NCBI GenBank assembly: GCA_947586835.1
Contig: CANPXT010000006.1
Span: forward strand, 422-64,421
Direction: 5' to 3'
Source of the DNA: an uncultured Alphaproteobacteria bacterium
GTDB taxonomy: Bacteria > Pseudomonadota > Alphaproteobacteria > CAAHEQ01 > UBA3637
Length of the DNA stretch: 64,000 nucleotides
Under the pieces are notes generated by a model. That model did not search any database. It saw nothing but the letters and a program-made list of their open reading frames with translations, and was not told where the DNA came from. Numbering within the stretch: the stretch's first letter is position 1; every line of letters begins with the position of its first letter. Position numbers and translations under genes: made by a program. Below are positions 1 through 60,643 of the stretch, in pieces.

Positions 1-580
1 GTGCACCACCTTTACTTGTTGCGGTGTTTTTCTCGAAAATATCCGTGTCAAAAAGCGTTTTTCCTTGGAAACCTTCAACGGCTTGATTAAGTGGCATAAG
101 TGTTACCGCACCGCCTTGAGACGCAGAATTTCCCGTAAAAGTAGAATTCAAAACTTTATCTTCTTTAGCCGCTTTGTCATGAGCATCATGCCATAAAGAT
201 AAGGCACCACCTGAACCGCCGTCTACTGTGGTTTTGTTATTTGTAAAAGTGCTGTTATTAATTGTTGTTTGTTTTTGTGTTGAATTCCAGCCAATATCAG
301 GATACATATTCATGTAAACACCATAATTGCTGCTATCCCAACCATCTGCGGTAATTTGAAGCTCATTATTTGTTTCATCATAATCACCTGTAACTTTATC
401 TTTTGAGTCAGAATCTTTGGATAGTGTTTTTTCTGAACTAAAAAATAAAGCATTTTTATTAATGGTTGATTGCAGGTCTTGAGCGCTGGCGGGTAATGCA
501 ACCATAGTGCCCATTAAAAGCGCAGCATTTAATAAAGCGCATTTCTTTAAAATATGTCCGTACTCATGCGATAAATACAT
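1..580 (-). CDS. Pmp-repeat (FxxN/GGA) autotransporter-like surface protein, N-terminal part only; the ORF runs off the left edge, so it is absent from the supplied ORF track
   Basis: Hand translation of the minus strand from ATG at 580 is open for 193 codons down to position 2, with an in-frame TAG upstream at 608-610. The N-terminus MYLSHEYGHILKKCALLNAALLMGTMVALPASA/QD is signal-peptide-like. Three FxxN...GGA units follow (STFTNNKTTVDGGSGGALSL, STFTGNSASQGGAVTL, DIFEKNTATSKGGA), typical of polymorphic-membrane-protein passenger repeats. Confidence 0.6.
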   Translation of the reverse strand, partial: MYLSHEYGHILKKCALLNAALLMGTMVALPASAQDLQSTINKNALFFSSEKTLSKDSDSKDKVTGDYDETNNELQITADGWDSSNYGVYMNMYPDIGWNSTQKQTTINNSTFTNNKTTVDGGSGGALSLWHDAHDKAAKEDKVLNSTFTGNSASQGGAVTLMPLNQAVEGFQGKTLFDTDIFEKNTATSKGGA

Positions 581-681
581 AAGTGCTGTTTTTGAATATT
601 TTATCATACTAATTTCTCCTTGATAATTAAATTAAAGTATTGATGCTCTTTTTTATGAAGAACATCACTCCTCGACTATTG

Positions 682-709
682 AGTATACAAAAACGTACGT
701 TTAATGCAA
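682..709 (-). promoter_or_regulatory. Putative sigma70-type promoter of the Pmp-like gene (TTGCAT-16 nt-TATACT on the minus strand), with the palindrome AAACGTACGTTT lying in the spacer
   Basis: Plus-strand atgcaa at 704-709 gives -35 TTGCAT. Plus-strand agtata at 682-687 gives -10 TATACT. The -35 lies inside the gene-proximal inverted-repeat arm. Confidence 0.4.
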
Positions 710-843
710 CGATTTTTTCGACACTTTTGAAGGGTAAGCAAAAAAATTAAGGAAAAAATAAAAAACAATAAAAATCAATGAGTTAAAAGAAAAATAAATT
801 TTTTTTGCAAAAAATGAAAAAAAGTGTTGCAAAAAACGTACGT
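693..843. repeat. IR-flanked upstream module, copy A: 26-bp arms (22/26 complementary) at 693-718 and 818-843 around a 99-bp A/T-rich spacer
   Basis: Arm 693-718 is ACGTACGTTTAATGCAACGATTTTTT. The reverse complement of 818-843 is ACGTACGTTTTTTGCAACACTTTTTT. The spacer and the distal flank (TTATTTTGTGCAG) are homologous to copies at 24656-24805 and 42749-42899. Confidence 0.85.
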
Positions 844-1158
844 TTATTTTGTGCAGTGAGGAAATCCACCGAACGGCTGATTTTCTTTCCCCCGATGCTC
901 TAGTTTTTTTAACTCCCATTCGGCAGAAAACCTCTCTTTTTTTAGACCATCAAACTGACAATAAAAACAACAAGAAAAAAAATCTCATCAATCACCAGTT
1001 TCGGGAAATATGATCAGAAACATAATATTGTCATTAATAATAAAACAATTTTATTTTAATATTCAATATGTTAATAATAATTTTTAATGTATTAAATTAA
1101 TATAAAAAGCAATCAAGATTATCAATAATTAAAGCTATATTACAACGCTTTTTATAAG

Positions 1159-11980: not shown

Positions 11981-14491
11981 TTATATCATCCGTTCGACGG
12001 TTTCTCTTGAAACATCGGATAATGTTTTATCAGCTGCAACTTTTTTTAATACACTGCGTGCCATTTCTTTTGTTGCCTCATCAAACTTTCGATATTTTGC
12101 AAATGCCGTAAATAGCCGTGCTGCCAAATGCGGATTGATTTTATCAATTTCCATGACATGACGCACAAAAAATTCATATCCTTTTAAAGTATGGAAAGAT
12201 TCCATATTTCCGCCAAAGGCACCGATAACAGCCCGCACTTTGTTGGGATTTCGAATATCGAACTTTTCGTGTTGAACTAATTTTTCCACAATCGGTAAAG
12301 TATTTTTTGATCCGTTTCGCGCTTGAACAGCAAACCATTTGTTTAAAACCAAATCGTCATTTTCATAGCGTTTATAGAAAGCATCAAGCGCTTGATCGGC
12401 ACCGGGCAAATCATTATTAACCAAAATATTTAAAGCTGATAATCTATCCGTTAAGTTATCGGCTTCATCAAATTGTTTTTTCACCAAATCAGCATAACCG
12501 ACCAATGCCAAATATCCCAAAGCGACGTTTTTGATGGCCCGTTTTCCGAAAGATAAATTATCCGGTGAATAAGCCTTTTTTATTTGATTTTTATTGTAAA
12601 TTTTCAATAAAATATCCTTATATTTTTCGGCAAAAGCTTGGCGCATCATTAATCGAACGGCTTTAATGCGTTTCATATCGGCAACACGCACTTTTTCAAA
12701 GATTTCTTCCTCACTCGGCAGAACAATGGCGCGTGCGATGAAAGCTTTATCTAATTTTGATTGATTTAAATAAGAACCTAATGCTTCAATGACATGCATA
12801 TCTGGTTCTTTGGCATTTTTCTCATACAAATGAACCAAGGAATCCAAAGCATATTGATGTCCGGCATCATAGCGATTAAATAAATCACTGTCATATTTCA
12901 TTAACCGTAAACGCATCACTTTTTTAGGTGAATATATAATATCAACCGGTGATGTAAAAAAGCGATTCAGTGATAAAGCCGGTTCATAAGGTACTTTAAA
13001 TCTATATGTTTTTGACTTTTTACTTAAAACAATTAAACCGTTTTTAAACTTTTTCCCTCTTCTGCCGACCAACCCAAAGGCCAACGGAATAACAAACGGC
13101 TTATATTTTCGCGAATGACTTTGCTTTAACGTAACGGCATAAGTACCGTTTTTATAGGAAGTTTTTACTTTTATCCTCGGCCGCCCTGCTGTTGAATACC
13201 ACAATTTAAATTGCGTTAAATCTTTACCGGATGCATCTTCCATGGCTTTAACAAAGTCATCAATGGTAACAGCCTGTCCGTCATGACGTTTAAAGTAAAG
13301 CGCTGCCCCTTTCATAAAAGTTTTTTTACCCAATAATGCCTTTTGCATTCGAATAACTTCCGCGCCTTTTTCATAAATGGTCGTGGTATAGAAGTTATCA
13401 ATCTCATGGTACGAATCGGGTCGTACCGGATGCGCTAACGGACCGTCATCCTCCGGAAATTGAACGGCACGAAGTGTTGCAACATCATCAATGCGACTGA
13501 CGGCTTTTGAAAAAGTATCATAACCGTATTCGGAATCACGAAACACCGTAAATCCTTCTTTTAAAGAAAGTTCAAACCAACTGCGCAAAGTCACGCGATC
13601 ACCACTGTAATTGTGAAAATATTCATGCGCCACAACGTGCTCAATATATTCATATGTTGCATCGGTAGCCGTATCGGGCGAAGCCAATAAGGCTGCATCA
13701 TTAAAAATATTTAATGATTTATTTTCCATCGCTCCCGCGTTAAAATGCGGAACGGCAACAATGCTGAATCGATTTAAATCATATTCCAAATGAAAAACTT
13801 TTTCATCCCATGCCATAGCTCGTTTTAAAGCATTGATGGCAAAAGTTAACCGTTCGGCTTTTCCGCGTTCGCAATAAAGACGTAAATCAACTTTTTTACC
13901 CGATTGCGTGATGTAAACATCATGAATACTGTCTAAATCGCCGGCAACCAAAGCAAACAAGTAACACGGTTTATTATAGGGATCTTCATAAACAATTACA
14001 TTGCCTTCGTCTTTAATGACATTACCGTTTGACAACAATACGGGATATTTTTTTCTGTCAGCGCGAATGGTTACGATAAATTTACTCGGCACATCGGAAT
14101 GATCAGGATAATATGTAATGTTTCTAAATCCTTCCGGCTCGCATTGCGTACAGAAAATGCCGTTTGAAACATAAAGCCCCATCAAACGCGTGTTATCTTG
14201 CGGATTAATTTCAACTTCCGTTTCAACAACAAAGGCTTTTTCTTTCGGATAAAGTGTTAAGCTCACATCTGTCAGATCATAATCATTCGGCGTTAATATT
14301 TGTCCGTTAATCATTACTTTTTTAAGGGTCATATATTGCCCGTTTAATAACAGCGGCTTATCTGTTTCAACCGAATCGAAATGCAGTTTTGCTTTAACCA
14401 GTGTTTTGGTCGGATCCAAAGTAAAATCCAATTCCGTTAAGGGTAACCGATAATGCGGTGCCACATAATTTTTGCGATATTTTAATGTCAT
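11981..14491 (-). CDS. pepN: Aminopeptidase N (M1 family)
   Basis: 836 aa. Has the GAMEN motif (NAGAMENKSLN), the zinc site HEYFHNYSGDRVT and the downstream SLKEGFT. Confidence 0.95.
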   Translation of the reverse strand: MTLKYRKNYVAPHYRLPLTELDFTLDPTKTLVKAKLHFDSVETDKPLLLNGQYMTLKKVMINGQILTPNDYDLTDVSLTLYPKEKAFVVETEVEINPQDNTRLMGLYVSNGIFCTQCEPEGFRNITYYPDHSDVPSKFIVTIRADRKKYPVLLSNGNVIKDEGNVIVYEDPYNKPCYLFALVAGDLDSIHDVYITQSGKKVDLRLYCERGKAERLTFAINALKRAMAWDEKVFHLEYDLNRFSIVAVPHFNAGAMENKSLNIFNDAALLASPDTATDATYEYIEHVVAHEYFHNYSGDRVTLRSWFELSLKEGFTVFRDSEYGYDTFSKAVSRIDDVATLRAVQFPEDDGPLAHPVRPDSYHEIDNFYTTTIYEKGAEVIRMQKALLGKKTFMKGAALYFKRHDGQAVTIDDFVKAMEDASGKDLTQFKLWYSTAGRPRIKVKTSYKNGTYAVTLKQSHSRKYKPFVIPLAFGLVGRRGKKFKNGLIVLSKKSKTYRFKVPYEPALSLNRFFTSPVDIIYSPKKVMRLRLMKYDSDLFNRYDAGHQYALDSLVHLYEKNAKEPDMHVIEALGSYLNQSKLDKAFIARAIVLPSEEEIFEKVRVADMKRIKAVRLMMRQAFAEKYKDILLKIYNKNQIKKAYSPDNLSFGKRAIKNVALGYLALVGYADLVKKQFDEADNLTDRLSALNILVNNDLPGADQALDAFYKRYENDDLVLNKWFAVQARNGSKNTLPIVEKLVQHEKFDIRNPNKVRAVIGAFGGNMESFHTLKGYEFFVRHVMEIDKINPHLAARLFTAFAKYRKFDEATKEMARSVLKKVAADKTLSDVSRETVERMI

Positions 14492-15189
14492 TTTTTCTCC
14501 TTTTCTTGATTACCGATTTTTTCGGCATTTAAAATTTTGTTCTTTTTATTTAATTCATTAAACCAATAGTCAGCTCGCTCTTGATTTTTTTCAAGACCTT
14601 GAAAGCCACCACTATAAAGGGCAATTAAGCTTGTCATAGCAAAAATATGTCCTTGTTCGGCTGCTTTTTCATAGAGAGTCAGCACTTTATCCATATTCGG
14701 CGTGCCGAAGTATCCGCGTTCAATCCAAACGCCCAGTCCGTATAAAGCATCCGGTAAATTATTCTGTGCTGCCGAATTCATCCATTTTATGGCTTTAATT
14801 TTGTTTTCGGGTATTTTATCACCCGTATCGTACATTAATGCCAATTCATATTGCGCTCGCGGAACATTTTGTAAAGCCGCCTGCTCTAAAAAAATTTCTG
14901 CTTTCTTTCCGTTAATCGGAAAAGAAGTGCCGCCTTTTCTGTACATTCGTCCCAAATAATATGAGGCCAACTTAGCCGTATCATTGTTTTGAGCGCTACT
15001 TGCCAACAAATAATAACGTTCGGCTTTTTTAAACAACCCGTTACTTTCCGCCTTTTGTGCAATTTCAAATAATTCGGCGGAAGATAAAGTAAAATCGCGT
15101 CCGACAACATAAACAATGCCGCAGAATGATAAGAAAATCAAGCCCAAAAATACTCGTTTAAAAATTGATTTTCTTTTTTTAGATGTCAT
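14488..15189 (-). CDS. Sel1-repeat (SLR/TPR-like) protein with an N-terminal membrane anchor or signal
   Basis: Hydrophobic N-terminus (VFLGLIFLSFCGIVYVV). Repeated A..YYLG.MY..G / A.YELALMY / ALYGLGVW Sel1-type units follow. The start overlaps the pepN stop region. Confidence 0.75.
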   Translation of the reverse strand: MTSKKRKSIFKRVFLGLIFLSFCGIVYVVGRDFTLSSAELFEIAQKAESNGLFKKAERYYLLASSAQNNDTAKLASYYLGRMYRKGGTSFPINGKKAEIFLEQAALQNVPRAQYELALMYDTGDKIPENKIKAIKWMNSAAQNNLPDALYGLGVWIERGYFGTPNMDKVLTLYEKAAEQGHIFAMTSLIALYSGGFQGLEKNQERADYWFNELNKKNKILNAEKIGNQEKEKK

Positions 15190-23206: not shown

Positions 23207-23686
23207 TCAATCAATACATACAGCATCAGCTTGGTAATAGAAGTCATCACGAAAGTAGTTTTGACCGATATTACCACTATAGAAGCCTACCCAGTATTTG
23301 ATGCAGGAGTTACTCCCTTCACTTGTTGTCCATACATAACTACCTGCTTCTGACATATTTTCAGACAACTTTTCAGACAACTCCTTCAATATCATACTAT
23401 CAGCACATTTGTTACTTCCTGACTCTACAGGAAGTAAAAATTTTGAACACCCCAATTCTTCTAAGCTCACCATCTTTTTGCCAATCGCATAGCAATACCT
23501 CTCTACACTCCACCAGTTCATACACGGACCTATATAATAAGTTGTCCCGTATACTTCCACTTTTTGCGGTTCCTCTATATCCTCACATGTATAGCTACTG
23601 CAAGAAGTTTCGACACCATTGGAGCAACCACACTCTTTGGTCATGCAATATTGACCTGTATCACAATTATTGCAAGGATTTTCCAC
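23207..23686 (-). CDS. C-terminal (Cys-containing, C-type-lectin-like) domain ORF of a split modular pilin-like gene
   Basis: The 159-aa ORF (GTG start in the track) is collinear with residues ~245-395 of the intact paralog 41511-42698 (CSNGVETSC.SY.C.DI.EPQKVEV.G.TYY; MVSL.ELGC). No independent RBS or ATG is visible. It is separated from the upstream ORF only by a +1 frame change at an A8 tract. Confidence 0.6.
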   Translation of the reverse strand: MENPCNNCDTGQYCMTKECGCSNGVETSCSSYTCEDIEEPQKVEVYGTTYYIGPCMNWWSVERYCYAIGKKMVSLEELGCSKFLLPVESGSNKCADSMILKELSEKLSENMSEAGSYVWTTSEGSNSCIKYWVGFYSGNIGQNYFRDDFYYQADAVCID

Positions 23687-24611
23687 ACACTTTTTTTTCT
23701 AAACTGCTCCAATATTTTCCTTCATCACATTCGCATCGCTTCGTTTCTTCATTCCATATGCCACTCGTGGTGGGATCACAAACCACACATTGACCACCGT
23801 ATAAATGCTTTTCTTTATCTTTACATACGCATTCGCTTACCCCTTCATCCCACTCCGTATCCGTCGGGCATGTTATGCACTTTTCGCCGTTCCAATACTT
23901 ATCCGTTTCCGAACATTCACACTTTTCCCCGTCCCATGTGGAATCTGTCGGACACTCTCCACACGTTCCGTCTTCATTGCATGGCCCTTGACAACTTTCA
24001 TCGCATGCCGGTTCCTCTCCTTGCGCTTCGTCTTCCACATTACCTTCACCACCGCTGTTGCGTATCTTTTCACCCGAAAAATCAACTTCCAATGTGTTAC
24101 TGACTTCACTGCATAATGTTACATTCAATTCCGAAGTGCATTTCGTGCCATTTATCACAACTGCTACCGTTTCATCCATACTTTCTAAAAGTGTTGCCAA
24201 CGGTTTGCATACGCCAGCCGTTACCCCTGATACGCTGATAAAATATCCGCTTTTCTCCCTTTCTTCCTCTTCTTCCGACTCTTCCGTGTCATGATTAAAC
24301 CCGAAATCAACTTTATATTTTTCGTTAAAACTCAAATGCCCTAATTCTTCCCCGATTTTGTCATACGGCTCACCTAAAAATAATTTTTGCTCCCCTTGAG
24401 CCAGTTTTATTTTGGCATCATTGCGCATTAAATTTATTTCATTCGCAATTTGATTCGCCTGATACCGTTCCATTGCCATTTTATAGCCTGCGATTCCCCC
24501 CAGTGAAATCACGCCGATAATAGCCAAAACACCCAGCATTTCAACCATTGACCGCCCGTCTTGTGCCTGATTTTGATGCTGCTTTGTTTTATTCTTTTTT
24601 TGAATTTCCAT
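23667..24611 (-). CDS. Modular pilin-like surface protein, N-terminal fragment: class-III (prepilin-type) signal, pilin-like domain and Cys-rich EGF/furin-like repeats
   Basis: The ATG at 24611 is preceded by GGGAGAAAGGG. The leader is MEIQKKNKTKQHQNQAQDG/RSMVEMLGVLAIIGVISL, with Gly at -1, Glu at +5 and a hydrophobic helix. There are 16 Cys in residues 202-309. The longer 385-aa track ORF reads through the upstream IR module and is rejected. Confidence 0.7.
   Translation of the reverse strand: MEIQKKNKTKQHQNQAQDGRSMVEMLGVLAIIGVISLGGIAGYKMAMERYQANQIANEINLMRNDAKIKLAQGEQKLFLGEPYDKIGEELGHLSFNEKYKVDFGFNHDTEESEEEEEREKSGYFISVSGVTAGVCKPLATLLESMDETVAVVINGTKCTSELNVTLCSEVSNTLEVDFSGEKIRNSGGEGNVEDEAQGEEPACDESCQGPCNEDGTCGECPTDSTWDGEKCECSETDKYWNGEKCITCPTDTEWDEGVSECVCKDKEKHLYGGQCVVCDPTTSGIWNEETKRCECDEGKYWSSLEKKVCGKSLQ
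23691..23698 (-). other. A8 homopolymer (T8 on the plus strand) at the frame junction of the split pilin-like gene
   Basis: Minus strand reads ...AGT TTA GAA AAA AAA GTG TGT GGA AAA TCC TTG CAA TAA. With A7 the frame reads ...LEKKCVENPCNNC... straight into the 159-aa ORF. Confidence 0.9.
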
Positions 24612-24643
24612 GAACCCTTTCTCCCGTTTACTTTTTCCTAAAT

Positions 24644-24672
24644 TGTATAAATTAAACGTAGGTTTATTGCAA
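24644..24672 (-). promoter_or_regulatory. Putative promoter of the pilin-like gene (TTGCAA-17 nt-TATACA), with the -35 inside the proximal IR arm
   Basis: ttgcaa at 24667-24672 is palindromic. Plus-strand tgtata at 24644-24649 gives TATACA on the minus strand. The same -10 block is conserved at 42737-42742. Confidence 0.4.
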
Positions 24673-24805
24673 CACTTTTTCGCACGCTTGAAAGAACAAA
24701 CATTTTGAAAACAAGAAAAGAATAACCGATTGAAAATGAACAAAAAACAAGAAAAATAAATTTTTTTGATGAAAAATGAAAAAAAGTGTTGCAATAAACC
24801 TACGT
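24656..24805. repeat. IR-flanked upstream module, copy B: perfect 25-bp inverted repeat (24656-24680 / 24781-24805) around a 100-bp spacer
   Basis: ACGTAGGTTTATTGCAACACTTTTT is the exact reverse complement of AAAAAGTGTTGCAATAAACCTACGT, checked base by base. Confidence 0.95.
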
Positions 24806-24858
24806 CTATTTTGTGCAGATTCAAAAAAAAAGCTGCTCGGAATGAGCAACTTTTTAAA

Positions 24859-24935
24859 TGGTAGGCGACTACGGATTCGAACCGCAGACCCCCTCGGTGT
24901 AAACGAGGTGCTCTGACCAGCTGAGCTAGTCGCCC
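24859..24935 (-). tRNA. tRNA-Val (anticodon TAC), encoded CCA
   Basis: Minus strand reads GGGCGACTAGCTCAGCTGGTCAGAGCACCTCGTTTACACCGAGGGGGTCTGCGGTTCGAATCCGTAGTCGCCTACCA. Anticodon stem CCTCG/CGAGG with loop TTTACAC. Confidence 0.9.
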
Positions 24936-24993: not shown

Positions 24994-25272
24994 CTATTTT
25001 TTGTTGACAACGTCTTTCAAACCTTTACCGGCACGGAATTTCGGTTGTTTGGAAGCCGGAATTTTAATAGCATCACCTGTATGCGGGTTACGACCTGTTG
25101 TAGCAGCTCTTTTCACAACGGCAAACGTACCGAAATTTGTAATGCGTACTTCATCACCTTTTTTTAAAGCGGCAGAAACGGCAGATGTTGTAGCATCTAA
25201 AGCTTTGGCAGCATCTGTTTTGGTTAAACCGGCTTGTTTTGCGATTGCATCAACTAATTCTTGCTTATTCAT
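24994..25272 (-). CDS. hup: Nucleoid-associated DNA-binding protein HU
   Basis: 92 aa, MNKQELVDAIA...FGTF.V..RAA..GRNP.TG..I.IPA...P.F..GK.LKD. Confidence 0.93.
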   Translation of the reverse strand: MNKQELVDAIAKQAGLTKTDAAKALDATTSAVSAALKKGDEVRITNFGTFAVVKRAATTGRNPHTGDAIKIPASKQPKFRAGKGLKDVVNKK

Positions 25273-28898: not shown

Positions 28899-29972
28899 TT
28901 ATCCGTCAATTTCAGCTAATTTCTGCATTTGATCTTCGGCAATCAAAGCATCGATAAAATCATCAAGACCGACACCGTCCATCACTTCGCTTAATTGATA
29001 AGAAGTTTTGTTAATGCGATGATCCGTCACTCGACCCTGCGGAAAATTATATGTTCTGATTCGCTCGGATCTGTCTCCCGATCCGACTTGATTTTTCCGA
29101 TTTTGTGATCGTTCTTTATCCAGTGCCTGTCGCTGCATATCATACAACAACGTTCTTAAACGCATCATCGCCTTATCTTTATTTTTAAATTGCGAACGTT
29201 CTTCCTGCGATTCAACGGCAATGCCCGTCGGTTTATGTACAATTCGAATGGCACTGTCGGTTTTATTAATGTGCTGTCCGCCGGCGCCTGATGAACGACA
29301 GGTTGTAATTTCCAAATCAGCCTCATTAATTTGCACGTCAACTTCCTGAGCCTCGGGCAAAACGGCAACGGTTGCCGCAGAGGTATGTACCCGTCCGCCG
29401 GATTCCGTTTCCGGTACACGCTGTACCCGATGAGCTCCGGATTCAAACTTCAGTCGTGCGAACACGGAACGACCTGATATTTGCGCAACCGCTTCCTTAT
29501 AACCGCCCAATCCCGTTTCGTTTAACGATAATATTTCAAACGTCCAATTTTTAAGAGCGGCATAACGTTCATACATACGAAATAAATCAGCAGCAAATAA
29601 CGCAGCCTCTTCGCCTCCTGTTCCCGCCCGCACTTCCAAAATCACATTTCTGTCATCGGCTTCATCTTTCGGCAAGAGTAAAATTTGAATTTCTTTTTCC
29701 ATTTCAGGTACTTGTTCTTTGAGTGAATAGTATTCTTCCTGTGCCATGGTTCGCATTTCGGCATCCGTCGTTTCATCATTCATTAATGCTTCATCATCAG
29801 CTATATCACAAAGCAATTTTTTATATTTTAATCCTAATGTATGAATTTCTTCCAACTGACTTAATTCTTTCGACAGACGAACAAACTCATCTCCTTCAAC
29901 GCCTTGCGATAATAAAGCGGTTAATTCCTCATAGCGACCGATAATCGGCGTTAATTTTTGCTCAAAATTCAT
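28899..29972 (-). CDS. prfA: Peptide chain release factor 1
   Basis: PET-like tripeptide region (RVQRVPETESGGRVHTS) and the GGQ motif (SSGAGGQHINK). Confidence 0.96.
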   Translation of the reverse strand: MNFEQKLTPIIGRYEELTALLSQGVEGDEFVRLSKELSQLEEIHTLGLKYKKLLCDIADDEALMNDETTDAEMRTMAQEEYYSLKEQVPEMEKEIQILLLPKDEADDRNVILEVRAGTGGEEAALFAADLFRMYERYAALKNWTFEILSLNETGLGGYKEAVAQISGRSVFARLKFESGAHRVQRVPETESGGRVHTSAATVAVLPEAQEVDVQINEADLEITTCRSSGAGGQHINKTDSAIRIVHKPTGIAVESQEERSQFKNKDKAMMRLRTLLYDMQRQALDKERSQNRKNQVGSGDRSERIRTYNFPQGRVTDHRINKTSYQLSEVMDGVGLDDFIDALIAEDQMQKLAEIDG

Positions 29973-30920: not shown

Positions 30921-31625
30921 TTAAAATGTCCACAATAAATTAAGATACAACAAAAAGAAAACAACAATGCCCGCCAAGCCCAATGCCGGTCCGAAAGCAT
31001 CTGCTCGTTTTTTCTTAATCCAAGCCGTGGCATAGAAAAACAAAAATGAAAGCAAAAGCGTGATATTTAATCCCATAGGACCAAACCAAATACCGAAAGC
31101 CGTTAACATTTTCACATCACCGGCACCGAATTCGCCTTTTTTGAAAAACGACATTATGAAAACGGCAAGGGTGGAAATAATGTAGCCGAACCACGCCCCG
31201 ATAATTCGTTCATTCATCGTTAAAACGGTATCCGACGAAAAACAAGCAAATGTAACACCGATTAATAATAAAGGAATGGTAAAAAAATCGGGTAATAAAT
31301 AATATTGTTGATCTACCGCCATTAAAAGAGCCGTTAAATAAAAAAACAGGCAAGCATAAACATAGATATGCGGTAAAAAAGCACAGGCATACGCAAACAA
31401 AAATCCCATGACAACACCCCAACCAACCGAAAAATAAATCATTTTTCGCCATTTTCCCTCTAACAATTCGCGACGTTTTGCATCTGCTACGCGCGGAAAC
31501 CGCGGTTTATGGAAAAGCATGGCACAAACCAAACCCGGATCGGCGGGTAATATTTTACCGAAACGACTGGCAAATGTCGGTATGGTTAAACCGAGTAAAA
31601 AGCCAATGAACATAATAACCGTCAT
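30921..31625 (-). CDS. Prepilin (A24 family) aspartic peptidase, without an obvious N-terminal Cys-rich methyltransferase module
   Basis: Polytopic membrane protein with a GAGDVKMLTAFG motif (GxGD-type second catalytic Asp). No CxxC pairs are visible at the N-terminus. Confidence 0.75.
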   Translation of the reverse strand: MTVIMFIGFLLGLTIPTFASRFGKILPADPGLVCAMLFHKPRFPRVADAKRRELLEGKWRKMIYFSVGWGVVMGFLFAYACAFLPHIYVYACLFFYLTALLMAVDQQYYLLPDFFTIPLLLIGVTFACFSSDTVLTMNERIIGAWFGYIISTLAVFIMSFFKKGEFGAGDVKMLTAFGIWFGPMGLNITLLLSFLFFYATAWIKKKRADAFGPALGLAGIVVFFLLYLNLLWTF

Positions 31626-41270: not shown

Positions 41271-41524
41271 AATTTTCACCACTTTGGGTTGTAAAAATTT
41301 ATAATTTTTCTACTTTTAATATATAAACGAGAAAAATATTTCGAAATTTTTTGCTGTTTATATTCTCATTTTTATCGATGTATGTATAATTTAATTAATT
41401 TTTGATGATATTTTTTCGTTTATCGGCGGGTGGGACAGAGGGTGTTTCAGCGGGAAGTGCCGGCTCGTGAAACGTGAGCCGGCGCAGGTGGTCAGAGAGG
41501 CTGAGAGGTCTTACTTACATAAGG
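41271..41524. repeat. Conserved 3'-flank repeat of the pilin-like loci, copy 2 (twin of 22905-23157)
   Basis: See copy 1. Hairpin GCCGGCTC (41459-41466) pairs with GAGCCGGC (41476-41483); the loop is GTGAAACGT, versus GGGGAACGT in copy 1. Confidence 0.85.
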
Positions 41525-42698
41525 TATCAAAACCGCCTGATTCCTGGTAGAAGTCTCTATTACTACCGGGAACTATCACGTATGCCTTGCAGGAATTCTC
41601 ACTATCATCAGATGGTTTTGTCCATAAAGCTCTTCTTCCAGCATTTTTTTCCTGCAGCTTCTTTATTAATGCACTTCCGGAACAGTCGACTGTTTTCGCC
41701 GTCGCTGTGCATCCCAACTCGCTTAAACTTACCATCTGTCCTGTTCCCTTCCCTTGTCTTCCTAATGCTTGGCAATATCTCTTTGCATTCCACAACTCCA
41801 TCAAAACATTATCCGTATAATAATAAGTCTCCCCGTCTACTTCCACTTTTTGCGGTTCTCCTATATCCATACATCTATAACTCCGGCAAGAAGTTTCAAC
41901 ACCATTGGAGCAACTACAACTGAGCATACAAAATTGATTACTGAGGCAATCATCATCTGTTGTACAATTCTTTCCTATTGTTGTCGCTGTTGCTGTCTCT
42001 GTTGTTATTGCTGCCGTTGTCGTAATGGGGGTTGTCGTTATCGGAGCTGTCGCTGTCGGTGTTGTCGGCATCGGTGTTGTTGGCGTCGGTGTTGTGGGCG
42101 TCGCTGTCGTAGTGGTAAATGTCACTGCCGTTGTCATCGGTTCATCTTCCTCATCATTCACAACACCCAAATCTGTGGTCGAAAATGCCACTTCTATTTT
42201 GTTTTCTGTGGCGCAAATGTTCCAATCCGTATCATAATAATCAACTTCATTTACTTTTATATCTTCCGTGTCTTCCATACTATCTAAAAGCGTGACTAAC
42301 GGTTTGCATACGCCCTCTGAAATGTTTGATACACTGATAAAATATTCATCTTCCGTCTCTTCCTCTTCTTCCGGATCTTGCGAATCATTATTAAACCCGA
42401 AATCAACTTTATATTTTTCGTTTAAACTCAAATGCCCTAATTCTTCGCCATCATTATCGTATGGTTCTCCTAAAAATAAATCGGCACCTTGTGCTACTTT
42501 CATCTTCATATCATTGCGTATTAAGTTGATTTCATTCGCAATTTGATTCGCCTGATACCGATCCATTGCCATTTTATAGCCTGCGATTCCCCCCAATGAA
42601 ATCACACCGATGATGGCCAAAACACCCAGCATTTCGACCATGCTGCGCCCGTCTTGTGCTTGTTTTTGTTGTTGTTTTAATTGTTTATTTTCTTGCAT
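41511..42698 (-). CDS. Modular pilin-like surface protein (intact paralog): class-III signal, pilin-like domain, Thr/Pro-rich linker and a Cys-containing lectin-like C-terminal domain
   Basis: The ATG at 42698 is preceded by GGGAGAAAGGA. The leader is MQENKQLKQQQKQAQDG/RSMVEMLGVLAIIGVISL. A disulfide pair sits in the pilin-like part (GVCKPL...NIC). The linker is TTAVTFTTTTATPTTPTPTTPMPTTPTATAPITTTPITTT. The C-terminal domain contains W.AKRYCQALG....MVSLSELGC...WT....NSC. Confidence 0.75.
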   Translation of the reverse strand: MQENKQLKQQQKQAQDGRSMVEMLGVLAIIGVISLGGIAGYKMAMDRYQANQIANEINLIRNDMKMKVAQGADLFLGEPYDNDGEELGHLSLNEKYKVDFGFNNDSQDPEEEEETEDEYFISVSNISEGVCKPLVTLLDSMEDTEDIKVNEVDYYDTDWNICATENKIEVAFSTTDLGVVNDEEDEPMTTAVTFTTTTATPTTPTPTTPMPTTPTATAPITTTPITTTAAITTETATATTIGKNCTTDDDCLSNQFCMLSCSCSNGVETSCRSYRCMDIGEPQKVEVDGETYYYTDNVLMELWNAKRYCQALGRQGKGTGQMVSLSELGCTATAKTVDCSGSALIKKLQEKNAGRRALWTKPSDDSENSCKAYVIVPGSNRDFYQESGGFDTLCK

Positions 42699-42748
42699 TT
42701 TCGTGAATCCTTTCTCCCGTTTACTTTTTCCTAAATTGTATAAATTAA

Positions 42749-42899
42749 ACGTAGGTCTAGTTGGTGCACTTTTTTGCACGCTTGAAAAAACAAACATTTT
42801 AAAAATAATAAAAAAATAACCGATTGAAAATGAATAAAAAACAAGAAAAATAAATTTTTTTGATGAAAAATGAAAAAAAATGTTGCAAAAATCGTACGT
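42749..42899. repeat. IR-flanked upstream module, copy C: the distal arm and spacer are conserved, the proximal arm is degenerate
   Basis: The reverse complement of the distal arm 42874-42899 is ACGTACGATTTTTGCAACATTTTTTT. The proximal arm 42749-42775 is ACGTAGGTCTAGTTGGTGCACTTTTTT, which matches only at the ACGTA.G start and the T-run. The spacer is nearly identical to copy B. Confidence 0.75.
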
Positions 42900-42951
42900 T
42901 TATTTTGTGCAACTCCAACCCCCAAAATTTATTAATCTTAAAAAAAACAAC

Positions 42952-52255: not shown

Positions 52256-52416
52256 TTTAGCTCCTTTTGTTAAACAATCTTTTTTATAACATACTTAAAT
52301 AAAATTTTCAAGTCTTTATTTAAAATTTAAGACTTTTTTATCTTTTAAGGCAAAAAACAACCGTTTTTTATTTTTATCTCTTGATATATGATAAAAAATT
52401 CTTTATAAATCATAAT

Positions 52417-53250
52417 ATGAAAGTACGCTCTGTTTTTATCTTCGGATTTTCGTTGTTAACTTCTGCTGTTTTGGCTGAACCGTTCGGCAGTTGTCCGCCT
52501 TATTCGGCTTTATATGGTGATCAAATTCTTTACGACTTAAATCATAAACCGATTTTGGCGTTGTTGGACAATGATTTAAAAATGTCCAATCTTTTGGGAA
52601 ATATTCCTTCTTTTGATTTATTTAAAACTACGCAAAATAATGTTTTTTACCCGAACGGCGATATATTGGTCACCTTTCAATCAAACGGTTCCCCAAGGAG
52701 CGGTATACAAAATATTTTTTATGAAAACGGCAATTTAATGGCTTCAATCCCATATTCTGAGGGTCAAAAAAACGGTTCTTTAAAACTTTATTATTCCAAT
52801 GGCGTGTTAATGGCCAGTATTCCGTATAAAAATGATTTAATTAACGGCGAATTAATTACCTATTATAATAATAACAATATTCAAATGCGCCAAACCTATA
52901 CAAATAATATGCCTGTCGGTACGGGTGAAATGTATCATGATAACGGAAATTTACAATTGACGCAAACTTATCAAAACGGGCAAATTCAAGGCCTTCAAAC
53001 ACAATTTTATGAAGATGGCTCAACCGTTCAATCGGAAATTTATTTTTCGAACGGGGTTATGAATCAAACAGCACGTTTATTTTACTTTAATTCGGCACCG
53101 CTTGCCGTTATTGAACTAAATGAAGGACAAATAATTTCAAATATTTGTTATACAAATGTCGGACAGACATCAAAACTTAATCAGGTTGAAATATATAAGT
53201 TTTTAAACGGTATGCGTCCGATTAATTGTTTCTATCAAAGTGAAATGTAA
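52417..53250 (+). CDS. Secreted MORN-repeat (YwqK-like) protein
   Basis: Signal peptide MKVRSVFIFGFSLLTSAVLA. Repeated Y..NG.L.....Y.NG...G units follow. Confidence 0.7.
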   Translation: MKVRSVFIFGFSLLTSAVLAEPFGSCPPYSALYGDQILYDLNHKPILALLDNDLKMSNLLGNIPSFDLFKTTQNNVFYPNGDILVTFQSNGSPRSGIQNIFYENGNLMASIPYSEGQKNGSLKLYYSNGVLMASIPYKNDLINGELITYYNNNNIQMRQTYTNNMPVGTGEMYHDNGNLQLTQTYQNGQIQGLQTQFYEDGSTVQSEIYFSNGVMNQTARLFYFNSAPLAVIELNEGQIISNICYTNVGQTSKLNQVEIYKFLNGMRPINCFYQSEM

Positions 53251-59164: not shown

Positions 59165-60643
59165 TTATCTTTGATTGAGCTTTTTTTGAGAGAGAACGGA
59201 TTCTTGCTGATGTATACTCCGAAGAATTTTTTGATCATTATCTTTTTCTTCCGCACTTAATTTACCTTGCAAAGAGCGATAAATTTTTGAAGCTGATGCG
59301 TATTTAAGCTTCTGATAAATTTTTCTTCTCCAAGAAGTACCGATTTCAGAATGCAAGAATTTTTCACTGCAACTCATTTTCTTTAATGCCAACTGCTCTT
59401 CTTCCGTCAGAGCTTTTTTCATTTGAGCTGTCATTACCGATTGCAACGGATACCATGATTTTAAAAGTTTGGAAATTTCCGTGTATTCCTTGCTATCAGC
59501 ATATGCCAGCGCCGTTTTTCCGTCCTTATCTTCGGTATTTACATCAATTTCAGGCACATTTAACAAAGCCGACACAATTTCCGGATGATTGTTATTTATG
59601 GCAATCATCAGTGCCGTTTTTCCACCTTCATTTCTGGCATTCACATCAATTTCCGGAGCTTTTAACAAAGCTTCCACATTTTTTGTATTACCATACCGCG
59701 CAGCCTGCATTAATGCCGTCCAATGATGTCCGTTTTTGGCATTCACATCAATTTCCGGCACTTTTAATAAGGCTGATACAACTTCCGGATCATTATTTCG
59801 CGCGGCATACTGCAAGGCTGTCATTTTATTATTGCTATTTTGGGTATTTACTTCAATTCCAGGCACTTTTAGTAATTTTATCACAATTTCAGGATTGTTG
59901 TTGCGTGTTGCATACATTAACGCCGTCATATTATTTTTATCTTTCACATTGACGTCAATCCCGGGCATTTTTAAGATCTCTGATACAATAATCTCGGAGT
60001 TATAAGTTGCAGCACGCATTAATTCGGCATTAAGATCAGTTCCCGGAACTTTTAACAAACTCGACACAATTTCCGGATGTTTATAGTCAGCAGCATACGC
60101 CAGCGCCGTATCACCTTTCATATCTTGAATAGCAGCAATTCCCGGCACCTTTAACAAAGCTGATACGATTTCAGAGCTGTTACGAGCGGCAGCCAACATG
60201 AGGGCAGATCTTCCATAGTTATCTTTGGCACCGATAACATCAATTCCCTGTGTTTTTAATAAAGCCGATGCAATTTCCTGATAATTGTTTTTAGCGACAA
60301 TTATTAACGCTTTTCCCTTTTGTGCATTGACATTAACACCCGGCACTTTTAACAATTTCGTCACAATTTCTAAATTATTGTTCGCAACGGCCGTTACCAA
60401 GGCTTTTCCGTTTTGTGCATTAACATTAATGCCCGGCACCTTTAATAATTCCGATAAAATTTCCAAATTATTATTTGCAATAACGGTATTCAACGCCGTA
60501 TTACCGTATATATCTTCTTCGTTAACATCAACACCTTGTCGAATTAAGCTTTTTACCTTTTTTAACTTTCCCTCGCGACAAGCTGTTATCAGTCGAGTAC
60601 TTTTTTCTTCCGGTTTTCTGATATTCATATAATTCATAGGCAT
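59165..60643 (-). CDS. Ankyrin-repeat protein (about 11 regular repeats) with a ~90-aa non-ANK C-terminal domain
   Basis: Repeats have the form ...TAL..AA.NN.PEIVSALLKVPGIDVNA.... The start is AGGAGG-N6-ATG. The C-terminal block is KFLHSEIGTSWRRKIYQKLKY. Confidence 0.85.
   Translation of the reverse strand: MPMNYMNIRKPEEKSTRLITACREGKLKKVKSLIRQGVDVNEEDIYGNTALNTVIANNNLEILSELLKVPGINVNAQNGKALVTAVANNNLEIVTKLLKVPGVNVNAQKGKALIIVAKNNYQEIASALLKTQGIDVIGAKDNYGRSALMLAAARNSSEIVSALLKVPGIAAIQDMKGDTALAYAADYKHPEIVSSLLKVPGTDLNAELMRAATYNSEIIVSEILKMPGIDVNVKDKNNMTALMYATRNNNPEIVIKLLKVPGIEVNTQNSNNKMTALQYAARNNDPEVVSALLKVPEIDVNAKNGHHWTALMQAARYGNTKNVEALLKAPEIDVNARNEGGKTALMIAINNNHPEIVSALLNVPEIDVNTEDKDGKTALAYADSKEYTEISKLLKSWYPLQSVMTAQMKKALTEEEQLALKKMSCSEKFLHSEIGTSWRRKIYQKLKYASASKIYRSLQGKLSAEEKDNDQKILRSIHQQESVLSQKKLNQR

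Follow-up and report, generated by a model that had tools for sequence, protein, structure and literature searches.

A perfect 25-bp inverted repeat lies directly upstream of a prepilin-like gene in the 64-kb window (the whole stretch of DNA analysed here). We consider it one copy of a family of invertible upstream switches (invertons) for prepilin-like surface or secreted proteins, a reading to which we assign a probability of about 0.5. The family, here called W-type, comprises at least 29 unit instances across the window and rabbit-gut metagenome-assembled genomes (MAGs), a count that may include the same locus in different MAGs. Its members share a common anatomy and a constant spacing between two arm sites. 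One member carries its segment flipped, and a homologous locus of another type (X) is found in both orientations.

The repeat unit in the window

The inverted repeat reported in the preliminary description was reproduced on recomputation: positions 24656-24680 (ACGTAGGTTTATTGCAACACTTTTT) and 24781-24805 are exact reverse complements (25/25) separated by 100 nt, and 100 dinucleotide-shuffled versions of the window yielded no such repeat. A weaker complementarity of 82% spans 49 nt (24632-24680 against 24781-24829). The arm starts 45 bp from the minus-strand start codon at 24611, as originally stated, and the proposed −35 hexamer in the proximal arm can be read directly from the minus strand, which has TTGCAA (24672-24667), a 17-nt spacer, TATACA (24649-24644) and then a GGGAGA Shine-Dalgarno sequence. 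Inverted repeats flanking a short gene-adjacent segment, the layout expected of an inverton, are therefore present at this unit (copy B), and the arm motif recurs throughout the family. The features of copy B are as follows.

24656-24680, gene-proximal arm, core ACGTAGGT; TTGCAA at 24667-24672 reads as a minus-strand −35
24681-24780, candidate invertible segment of 100 bp; centre varies among copies, A/T-tract block by the distal arm conserved
24781-24805, distal arm, exact reverse complement of the proximal arm
24730-24757, plus strand, weak sigma-70-like site TTGAAA-16-AAAAAT (9/12), pointing toward the distal arm and away from the gene
24644-24649, minus strand, −10-like TATACA outside the arm, in the outer half of the proximal quasi-palindromic site, 17 nt after TTGCAA
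24806-24818, plus strand, outer half of the distal site, CTATTTTGTGCA; mirrors the −10 position and reads TGTGCA, which is not a −10
24612-24643, minus strand, short leader; Shine-Dalgarno GGGAGA is the reverse complement of 24620-24625
24827-24855, minus strand, hairpin resembling a terminator, following tRNA-Val (24859-24935, minus strand) and adjoining copy B on its distal side

The 9/12 site is the only promoter-like element of the copy B interior, in keeping with the earlier caveat that the 100 bp hold no strong promoter. A strict sigma-70 scan left the arm-embedded promoter uncalled, TATACA having no T at position 6 and TTGCAT matching at 3/6 positions. Since its −35-like hexamer is part of the arm and its −10-like hexamer sits beyond the arm, this arm-embedded promoter would survive inversion. 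On the far side (24859-24935 and 24994-25272), the distal arm as assembled is directed at the terminator and at the antisense strand of the tRNA. An exact look-up of the window protein B in public assemblies returned no record, and consequently no independent assembly of the copy B locus is available for comparison.

The preliminary description placed homologous units before two other surface-protein genes, and nhmmer recovered exactly these two (copies A and C) and none elsewhere in the window, which also has no isolated single arm-like sites. The three-copy family stands as a set of three homologous units; perfect arms are confined to copy B. Relative to their genes, all on the minus strand, the three copies are oriented alike, a caveat that had been raised from the outset. 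The other units and the associated genes of the window are listed below.

669-858, plus strand, copy A unit; arms 693-717 and 819-843 (21/25 complementary)
<1-607, minus strand, gene downstream of copy A encoding a Chlam_PMP-repeat protein (domain match)
42727-42915, plus strand, copy C unit; arms 42749-42773 and 42875-42899 (12/25 complementary), proximal arm a GTGCACCAA variant
41511-42698, minus strand, prepilin-like gene C, downstream of copy C
23667-24611, minus strand, prepilin-like gene B (314 aa), N-terminal GRSMVEMLGVLAIIG, C-terminal part Cys-rich
23207-23686, minus strand, 159-aa ORF homologous to the protein C C-terminal domain; a frameshift at an A8 tract (23691-23698) separates it from gene B
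30921-31625, minus strand, prepilin peptidase gene (Peptidase_A24, domain match)

At their N-termini proteins B and C read ...GRSMVEMLGVLAIIGV..., a motif of the prepilin type, which substantiates the earlier assignment of a surface protein with a class III signal. The Peptidase_A24 product is likely the processing enzyme for the pilin-like proteins. Besides these genes the window DNA is housekeeping in character; prfA (28899-29972) was identified by inspection only. The absence of a recombinase from the window, another of the initial caveats, was confirmed by a scan of 58 window ORFs against Pfam or NCBIfam, none of which contained a recombinase domain. Serine or tyrosine recombinases were likewise absent from the fetched loci, which together with the 64-kb window are small parts of the genomes concerned, and a regular-expression search of the window and fetched-locus DNA for the serine-recombinase catalytic motif gave no match.

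Two further observations concern the window genes. The A8 tract (T8 on the plus strand) just precedes the gene B stop codon, and loss of one A would fuse gene B in frame with the 159-aa ORF, which has 42% identity to the C-terminal domain of protein C, giving a product of ~470 aa as in the rest of the protein family; the frameshift may stem from a sequencing error, mark a pseudogene or reflect slipped-strand phase variation. Genes for ankyrin-, Sel1- and MORN-repeat proteins are present at 59165-60643, 14488-15189 and 52381-53250, and ankyrin genes also adjoin units in four fetched loci (L001, L007, L032 and L036). Repeat proteins of this eukaryote-like kind are a hint that the organism lives in association with a host.

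Conserved architecture of the W-type family

Scanning species-representative genomes with the distal-arm pattern led to rabbit-gut MAGs labelled uncultured Alphaproteobacteria, and further loci were fetched through homologues of protein B, of which there are at least 220, none with a Pfam family. One match of the genome scan (L009) was rejected as a chance match, and two arm-pattern scans of JGI metagenome contigs returned either no matches or chance matches without a unit. An 8.8-kb contig labelled uncultured Akkermansia sp. (L004, CANQYL010000089.1) contains four W-type units with pilin-like genes; its genes are typical of the alphaproteobacterial MAGs, and the contig is probably mis-binned. 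Nearly all W-type units lie directly 5′ of prepilin-like genes, including one for a 154-aa probable major pilin, and a few precede a glycosyltransferase gene, a secreted-protein family or a PEP-phosphotransferase-like gene, the last named from sequence inspection.

Both arms of the unit share the motif AAACGTAC..TT..TGCAAC, and each arm represents the inner half and core of a ~32-bp quasi-palindrome, TTGCA...CGTACG...TGCA. Complementarity between the arms is typically 17-18/25, the exceptions being copy B (25/25), L003_1965 (23/25) and copy C (12/25), and proximal and distal arms differ consistently at positions 7, 8, 11, 12 and 19 (in 19-21 of 23 copies). All 23 copies measured place the two cores 142-145 bp apart around an interior of 100-103 bp, a spacing whose helical phasing is ambiguous at 10.3-10.5 bp per turn. 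The central ~60 nt of the interior fall into at least three diverged subtypes, and the distal block (A-tracts plus GTGTTGCAAAAATCGTACGTTT) together with the distal arm is nearly invariant, though it faces no gene in most copies.

On the proximal side the −10-like hexamer (TATGCT, TATACT or TATACA) always has A at position 2, lies 17 nt after TTGCAT or TTGCAA and is followed by a short leader with a GGGAG Shine-Dalgarno sequence. The distal site reads TGTGCA at the −10-equivalent position, but units with a gene adjoining them on the distal side have a canonical hexamer there: five assemblies (L018-L022) have TTGCAA-17-TATAAA followed by a Shine-Dalgarno sequence and ATG, and the L001 gene at 622-1761 has TTGCAT-17-TATAAT, preceded by TG. 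In many copies of the W-type unit a weak interior site recurs at the same offset and faces the distal arm (TCGAAA, TTGAAA or TTTAAA, 16-17 nt, then TAAAAT or AAAAAT), scoring 8.5-10/12. Other readings of the arms were rejected by eye, namely sigma-54 (no GG at −24), ECF/EcfG (AAC and CGT elements wrongly spaced) and CtrA (TTAA repeats N8 apart, absent from copy A).

Two additional conserved elements were seen around the units of sister MAGs. A long hairpin (TTTTCCCCTATCGGCCCATAGCGACAGACG...CGTCTGTC...GCCGATAGGGAAAA) follows many pilin-like genes just distal to units in L002, L003, L004, L005 and L008 (e.g., L005:2806-2878) and looks like a common terminator or REP-like repeat. A conserved leader of 138 nt separates the unit from the ATG at the gene for the 154-aa probable major pilin (GAGAGAAAA..TCTCTCGATAGGGAAA...; L001:7733-7870 and L002:2736-2875) and may be a structured 5′ UTR.

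Segment orientation and the choice between switch and static cassette

One segment orientation is found in 28 of 29 family copies, and the five loci for which at least two independent assemblies were compared (L010/L011, L012/L013, L014-L017, L018-L022 and L033/L034) agree among themselves. The exception, L035 (GCA_947624935.1), has a 141-nt core-to-core segment that aligns to the reverse complement of the standard unit, with 117/141 identical positions and a local score of 94 against 19 in the forward direction. Its outer flanks are standard: the far one bears the GTGCAAC signature, the one next to the gene has TGTATACT, GAAAGGAGTC and ATG, and the −10, Shine-Dalgarno sequence and gene keep the usual layout. 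In this copy the equivalent interior site points toward the gene. The interior subtypes themselves are not mutual reverse complements, as none of 190 pairs scored better reversed.

A second case comes from X-type units upstream of a distantly related gene (P0103, 30% identity), which have analogous 25-bp arms (ATCTCAAAAAAAYGTTCCTTTTTTT). One such locus was assembled twice, as L028 and L029, which match without a single difference over the 1440 nt covering the near arm and gene and are nearly identical in the far flank. Between the arms the two are entirely different in the forward direction and align significantly only in reverse, the reverse-complement score being 42 compared with 17.9 ± 3.1 for shuffles (0/1000 as high). 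In the L028 segment a consensus sigma-70 promoter, TTGACA-17-TATAAT, is directed away from the gene; in the L029 segment TTGACA-17-TAAAAT is directed toward it. The interiors are only ~70% identical after reversal, so the two states do not represent a simple recent flip. A third unit type (Y), found in L006 (L006:2511-2715), has a 20-nt perfect inverted repeat with cores AAACGTCCGTTT and AAACGGACGTTT 164 bp apart, and is followed by a gene for a 191-aa protein (L006:2725-3297) with three helix-turn-helix (HTH) motifs (HTH_38, HTH_7 and HTH_23/28). Next to one arm is TTGACA-17-TATACT (11/12), which faces the neighbouring W-type unit and pilin-like gene and points away from the 3xHTH gene. Promoters in the X- and Y-type units score 11-12/12. 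The 3xHTH protein may act as a regulator or as an accessory factor in recombination; the window encodes no homologue of it.

In the mechanism that we propose for the inverton, a site-specific recombinase encoded elsewhere in the genome would bind the two sites, 142-145 bp apart core to core, and flip the segment by strand exchange at the core or close to it. The prevailing assembled orientation (28/29), with the interior promoter-like site and the A-tract/TTGCAA half-promoter pointing away from the gene, would correspond to an OFF or low state with at most weak expression from the arm-embedded TTGCAA-17-TATACA, and inversion would point the interior elements at the fixed −10, leader and gene to give the ON state. 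We infer that inversion at the window loci is programmed, frequent and recombinase-mediated, and likewise which promoter elements it would switch. The two independent inversions, in L035 and in L028/L029, break precisely at the arms, which favours the inverton. The consensus promoters that homologous units hold in a switchable position, and the comparable layout of the Y-type unit in L006, count on the same side. The near invariance of a distal block that faces no gene is easily explained if this block is the stored half of a switch.

The original proposal of a phase-variable switch is upheld in that segments bounded by inverted repeats occur in many copies 5′ of surface-protein genes and related segments are inverted exactly at the arms; it is not upheld for flipping of the window copies, as the flipped state was found neither for these three nor for their closest relatives (L033/L034) in the assemblies compared. 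Known invertons can show a near-universal preference for one orientation (PMC11892184), and uniform orientation in consensus assemblies is no refutation because they can be in a single state nearly all the time (PMC11892184). Nor would it be one for a family of dozens of contingency genes, most of which would be expected to be OFF. Several points do count against the inverton: L035 could be a single evolutionary inversion by homologous recombination, the promoter-like motif over the proximal arm and outer flank persists in either orientation, proximal and distal arms are consistently different at five positions, the interior sites of W-type units are weak, no serine or tyrosine recombinase was found in the window or fetched loci, and the L028/L029 interiors have diverged by the extent noted above.

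The strongest competitor, which we regard as a serious possibility if a somewhat less probable one, is a static regulatory cassette in which one promoter/operator motif is present twice, as the two arms, in diverging orientation (−35 TTGCAA/T, a 17-bp spacer with a CGTACG dyad, then the −10) and inversions are rare accidents. A common dimeric or multimeric protein, for example the L006 3xHTH protein, would bind both sites and loop the fixed-length, A-tract-rich spacer, co-regulating the whole surface-protein regulon, and inversions like that of L035 would arise by recombination between the inverted repeats. The expected pair of dyad-symmetric sites at a constrained distance is indeed present, one at each arm with the same spacing in 23/23 copies. 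The proximal −10-like hexamer, with its invariant A, is at the right distance from the Shine-Dalgarno sequence and ATG, and distal-type arms abut genes with canonical −10s in L018-L022 and at L001 622-1761. The single orientation of 28/29 copies and of all repeated assemblies, the distinct conserved identities retained by proximal and distal arms, and the arm-like sites 5′ of the HTH protein gene, which could reflect autoregulation, are also as a cassette would have them. A cassette leaves unexplained why L035 breaks exactly at the arm cores and why near-consensus promoters stand by one arm of X- and Y-type units in either direction, and it needs an extra assumption to account for a conserved UP-like A-tract and −35 beside the non-functional TGTGCA. 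Its regulator has no candidate beyond the L006 3xHTH lead, and isolated single sites are absent from the window. The real choice is between a programmed inverton, which we rate at about even odds, and a static cassette occasionally inverted in evolution, to which we give an appreciable but smaller share of belief.

Comparison of individual loci gives further hints of recombination at the units. L010 and L011 differ by clustered substitutions confined to the interior, their flanks being identical (2290-2481). Between the orthologous L036 and L037, identity is ~98% as far as the unit, within which homology ends, and the two continue into different downstream paralogues (L036:5780-6180 against L037:3725-4095). 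The units resemble junctions at which recombination could shuffle the surface-protein genes. The L003_1965 unit has a mosaic arm, distal-type sequence at the proximal site, and this mosaic together with the perfect arms of copy B points to sequence exchange between arms. L014-L017, four independent assemblies of one unit, are identical except for the presence or absence of one T in the T-tract by the distal arm (columns 88-92), which is homopolymer length variation or an assembly error.

A more elaborate version of the inverton, which we think rather unlikely in its entirety, would combine dozens of genome-wide invertons, one unlinked recombinase, a split promoter, a regulatory hierarchy and gene-shuffling junctions. 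The −10 and leader would be fixed outside the repeat and the invertible segment would carry the UP-like A-tract, the −35 and the weak internal promoter, such that inversion would tune an always-present core promoter without removing it. In this hierarchy, the related Y-type switch would toggle its strong promoter between the 3xHTH gene and the neighbouring pilin-like gene, and the units would double as recombination junctions shuffling downstream surface-protein genes among loci.

Mobile-element and RNA readings, and comparison with known systems

The preliminary description also named a MITE, here one with terminal inverted repeats and outward-facing promoters spread through the genome, and we consider this very improbable. 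The ~190-bp copies with inverted-repeat arms are many and dispersed, some precede unrelated genes (Pmp-like, glycosyltransferase, PEP-phosphotransferase-like and secreted-protein family), and homology between orthologous loci breaks inside the unit, all of which a mobile element would accommodate. However, each copy with readable flanks is at a gene 5′ end in fixed orientation, and the repeats are internal rather than terminal, with the conserved −10, leader and TGTGCA extending beyond the arms. The loci examined showed no target-site duplications, empty sites or transposase, and co-duplication with the paralogous genes explains most copies. The MITE reading fails on context and for want of terminal repeats and target-site duplications.

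The remaining alternative, a 25-bp stem acting in leader RNA or as a DNA cruciform (an attenuator, terminator or processing site), is scarcely credible: copy B folds stably as RNA (−47.1 kcal/mol, z = −7.6) and as DNA (−29.7 kcal/mol, z = −5.8), but the reading fails because base pairing is conserved neither in copy C (12/25) nor in most other copies (17-18/25, with the same mismatches in 19-21/23), there is a single double change and covariation across homologues is missing, the likely transcription start downstream of the proximal arm means that both arms would not be together in the mRNA, and Rfam gave nothing at the gathering threshold and, far below it, only models of miRNA precursors, as long hairpins generally do.

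If the inverton reading is correct, the units would constitute a large inverton family new to the literature, in gut Alphaproteobacteria that are uncultured and essentially without genetics, controlling an expanded prepilin-like repertoire (at least 220 homologues of protein B, none matching a Pfam family). This would amount to Bacteroides-style combinatorial surface variation by a global invertase in another phylum and with another class of surface molecule, and would provide a defined repeat motif for calling phase variation in rabbit-gut and other gut metagenomes. Should inversion be excluded, the unit would still be a sharply defined regulatory cassette marking a surface/secretome regulon.

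Among known systems, the Correia elements of Neisseria are MITEs of ~150 bp with promoter-bearing 26-bp inverted repeats that insert at TA sites with duplications in many contexts. They resemble the W-type units in their many copies, ~25-bp repeats and possible supply of promoters to neighbours. Unlike Correia elements, W-type units are located at gene 5′ ends and their conservation continues past the repeats. The upstream homology box of Borrelia erp genes, a conserved 5′ region that carries operators and is more similar among loci than the paralogous coding sequences, is a model for the static cassette, being a non-coding 5′ region with protein-binding sites (predicted in our case); in contrast to W-type units, the erp regions have no bounding inverted repeats and are not known to be inverted between strains.

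Escherichia coli fimS and Salmonella hin share with the W-type units a segment bounded by inverted repeats upstream of a pilus or flagellar gene, and the quasi-palindromic arm sites are reminiscent of hix sites. Those systems are single loci with a clear internal promoter and the recombinase (fimB/fimE or hin) adjacent or inside, whereas the W-type units exist in dozens of copies with no nearby recombinase and a weak internal promoter.

The closest known system is that of the Mpi-dependent invertible promoters of capsular polysaccharide loci. Their repeat core is given as ARACGTWCGT, which AAACGTACGT in copy A would match; copy B has AAACGTAGGT. W-type units are like the Mpi promoters in being dispersed in many units per genome and in having ~20-25 bp repeats around a short segment, promoter-bearing in the Mpi case, immediately 5′ of genes for surface structures. 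In Bacteroides fragilis a single serine recombinase, Mpi, inverts 13 dispersed regions (PMC4747536), and with one global enzyme no adjacent recombinase is needed (PMC4747536). Unlike the Mpi system, the W-type units belong to an alphaproteobacterial host, precede prepilin-like genes, and have sites of the sigma-70 −35/−10 type with no Bacteroides −7 TAnnTTTG promoter inside the segment; given the differences in host and promoter type, they are not members of the Mpi family. Their 100-103 bp interior is without a strong promoter, the −35-like hexamer being in the arm and the −10-like hexamer outside, and if the units are invertons, the location of part of the promoter outside the invertible segment is a possible variant feature of the family.
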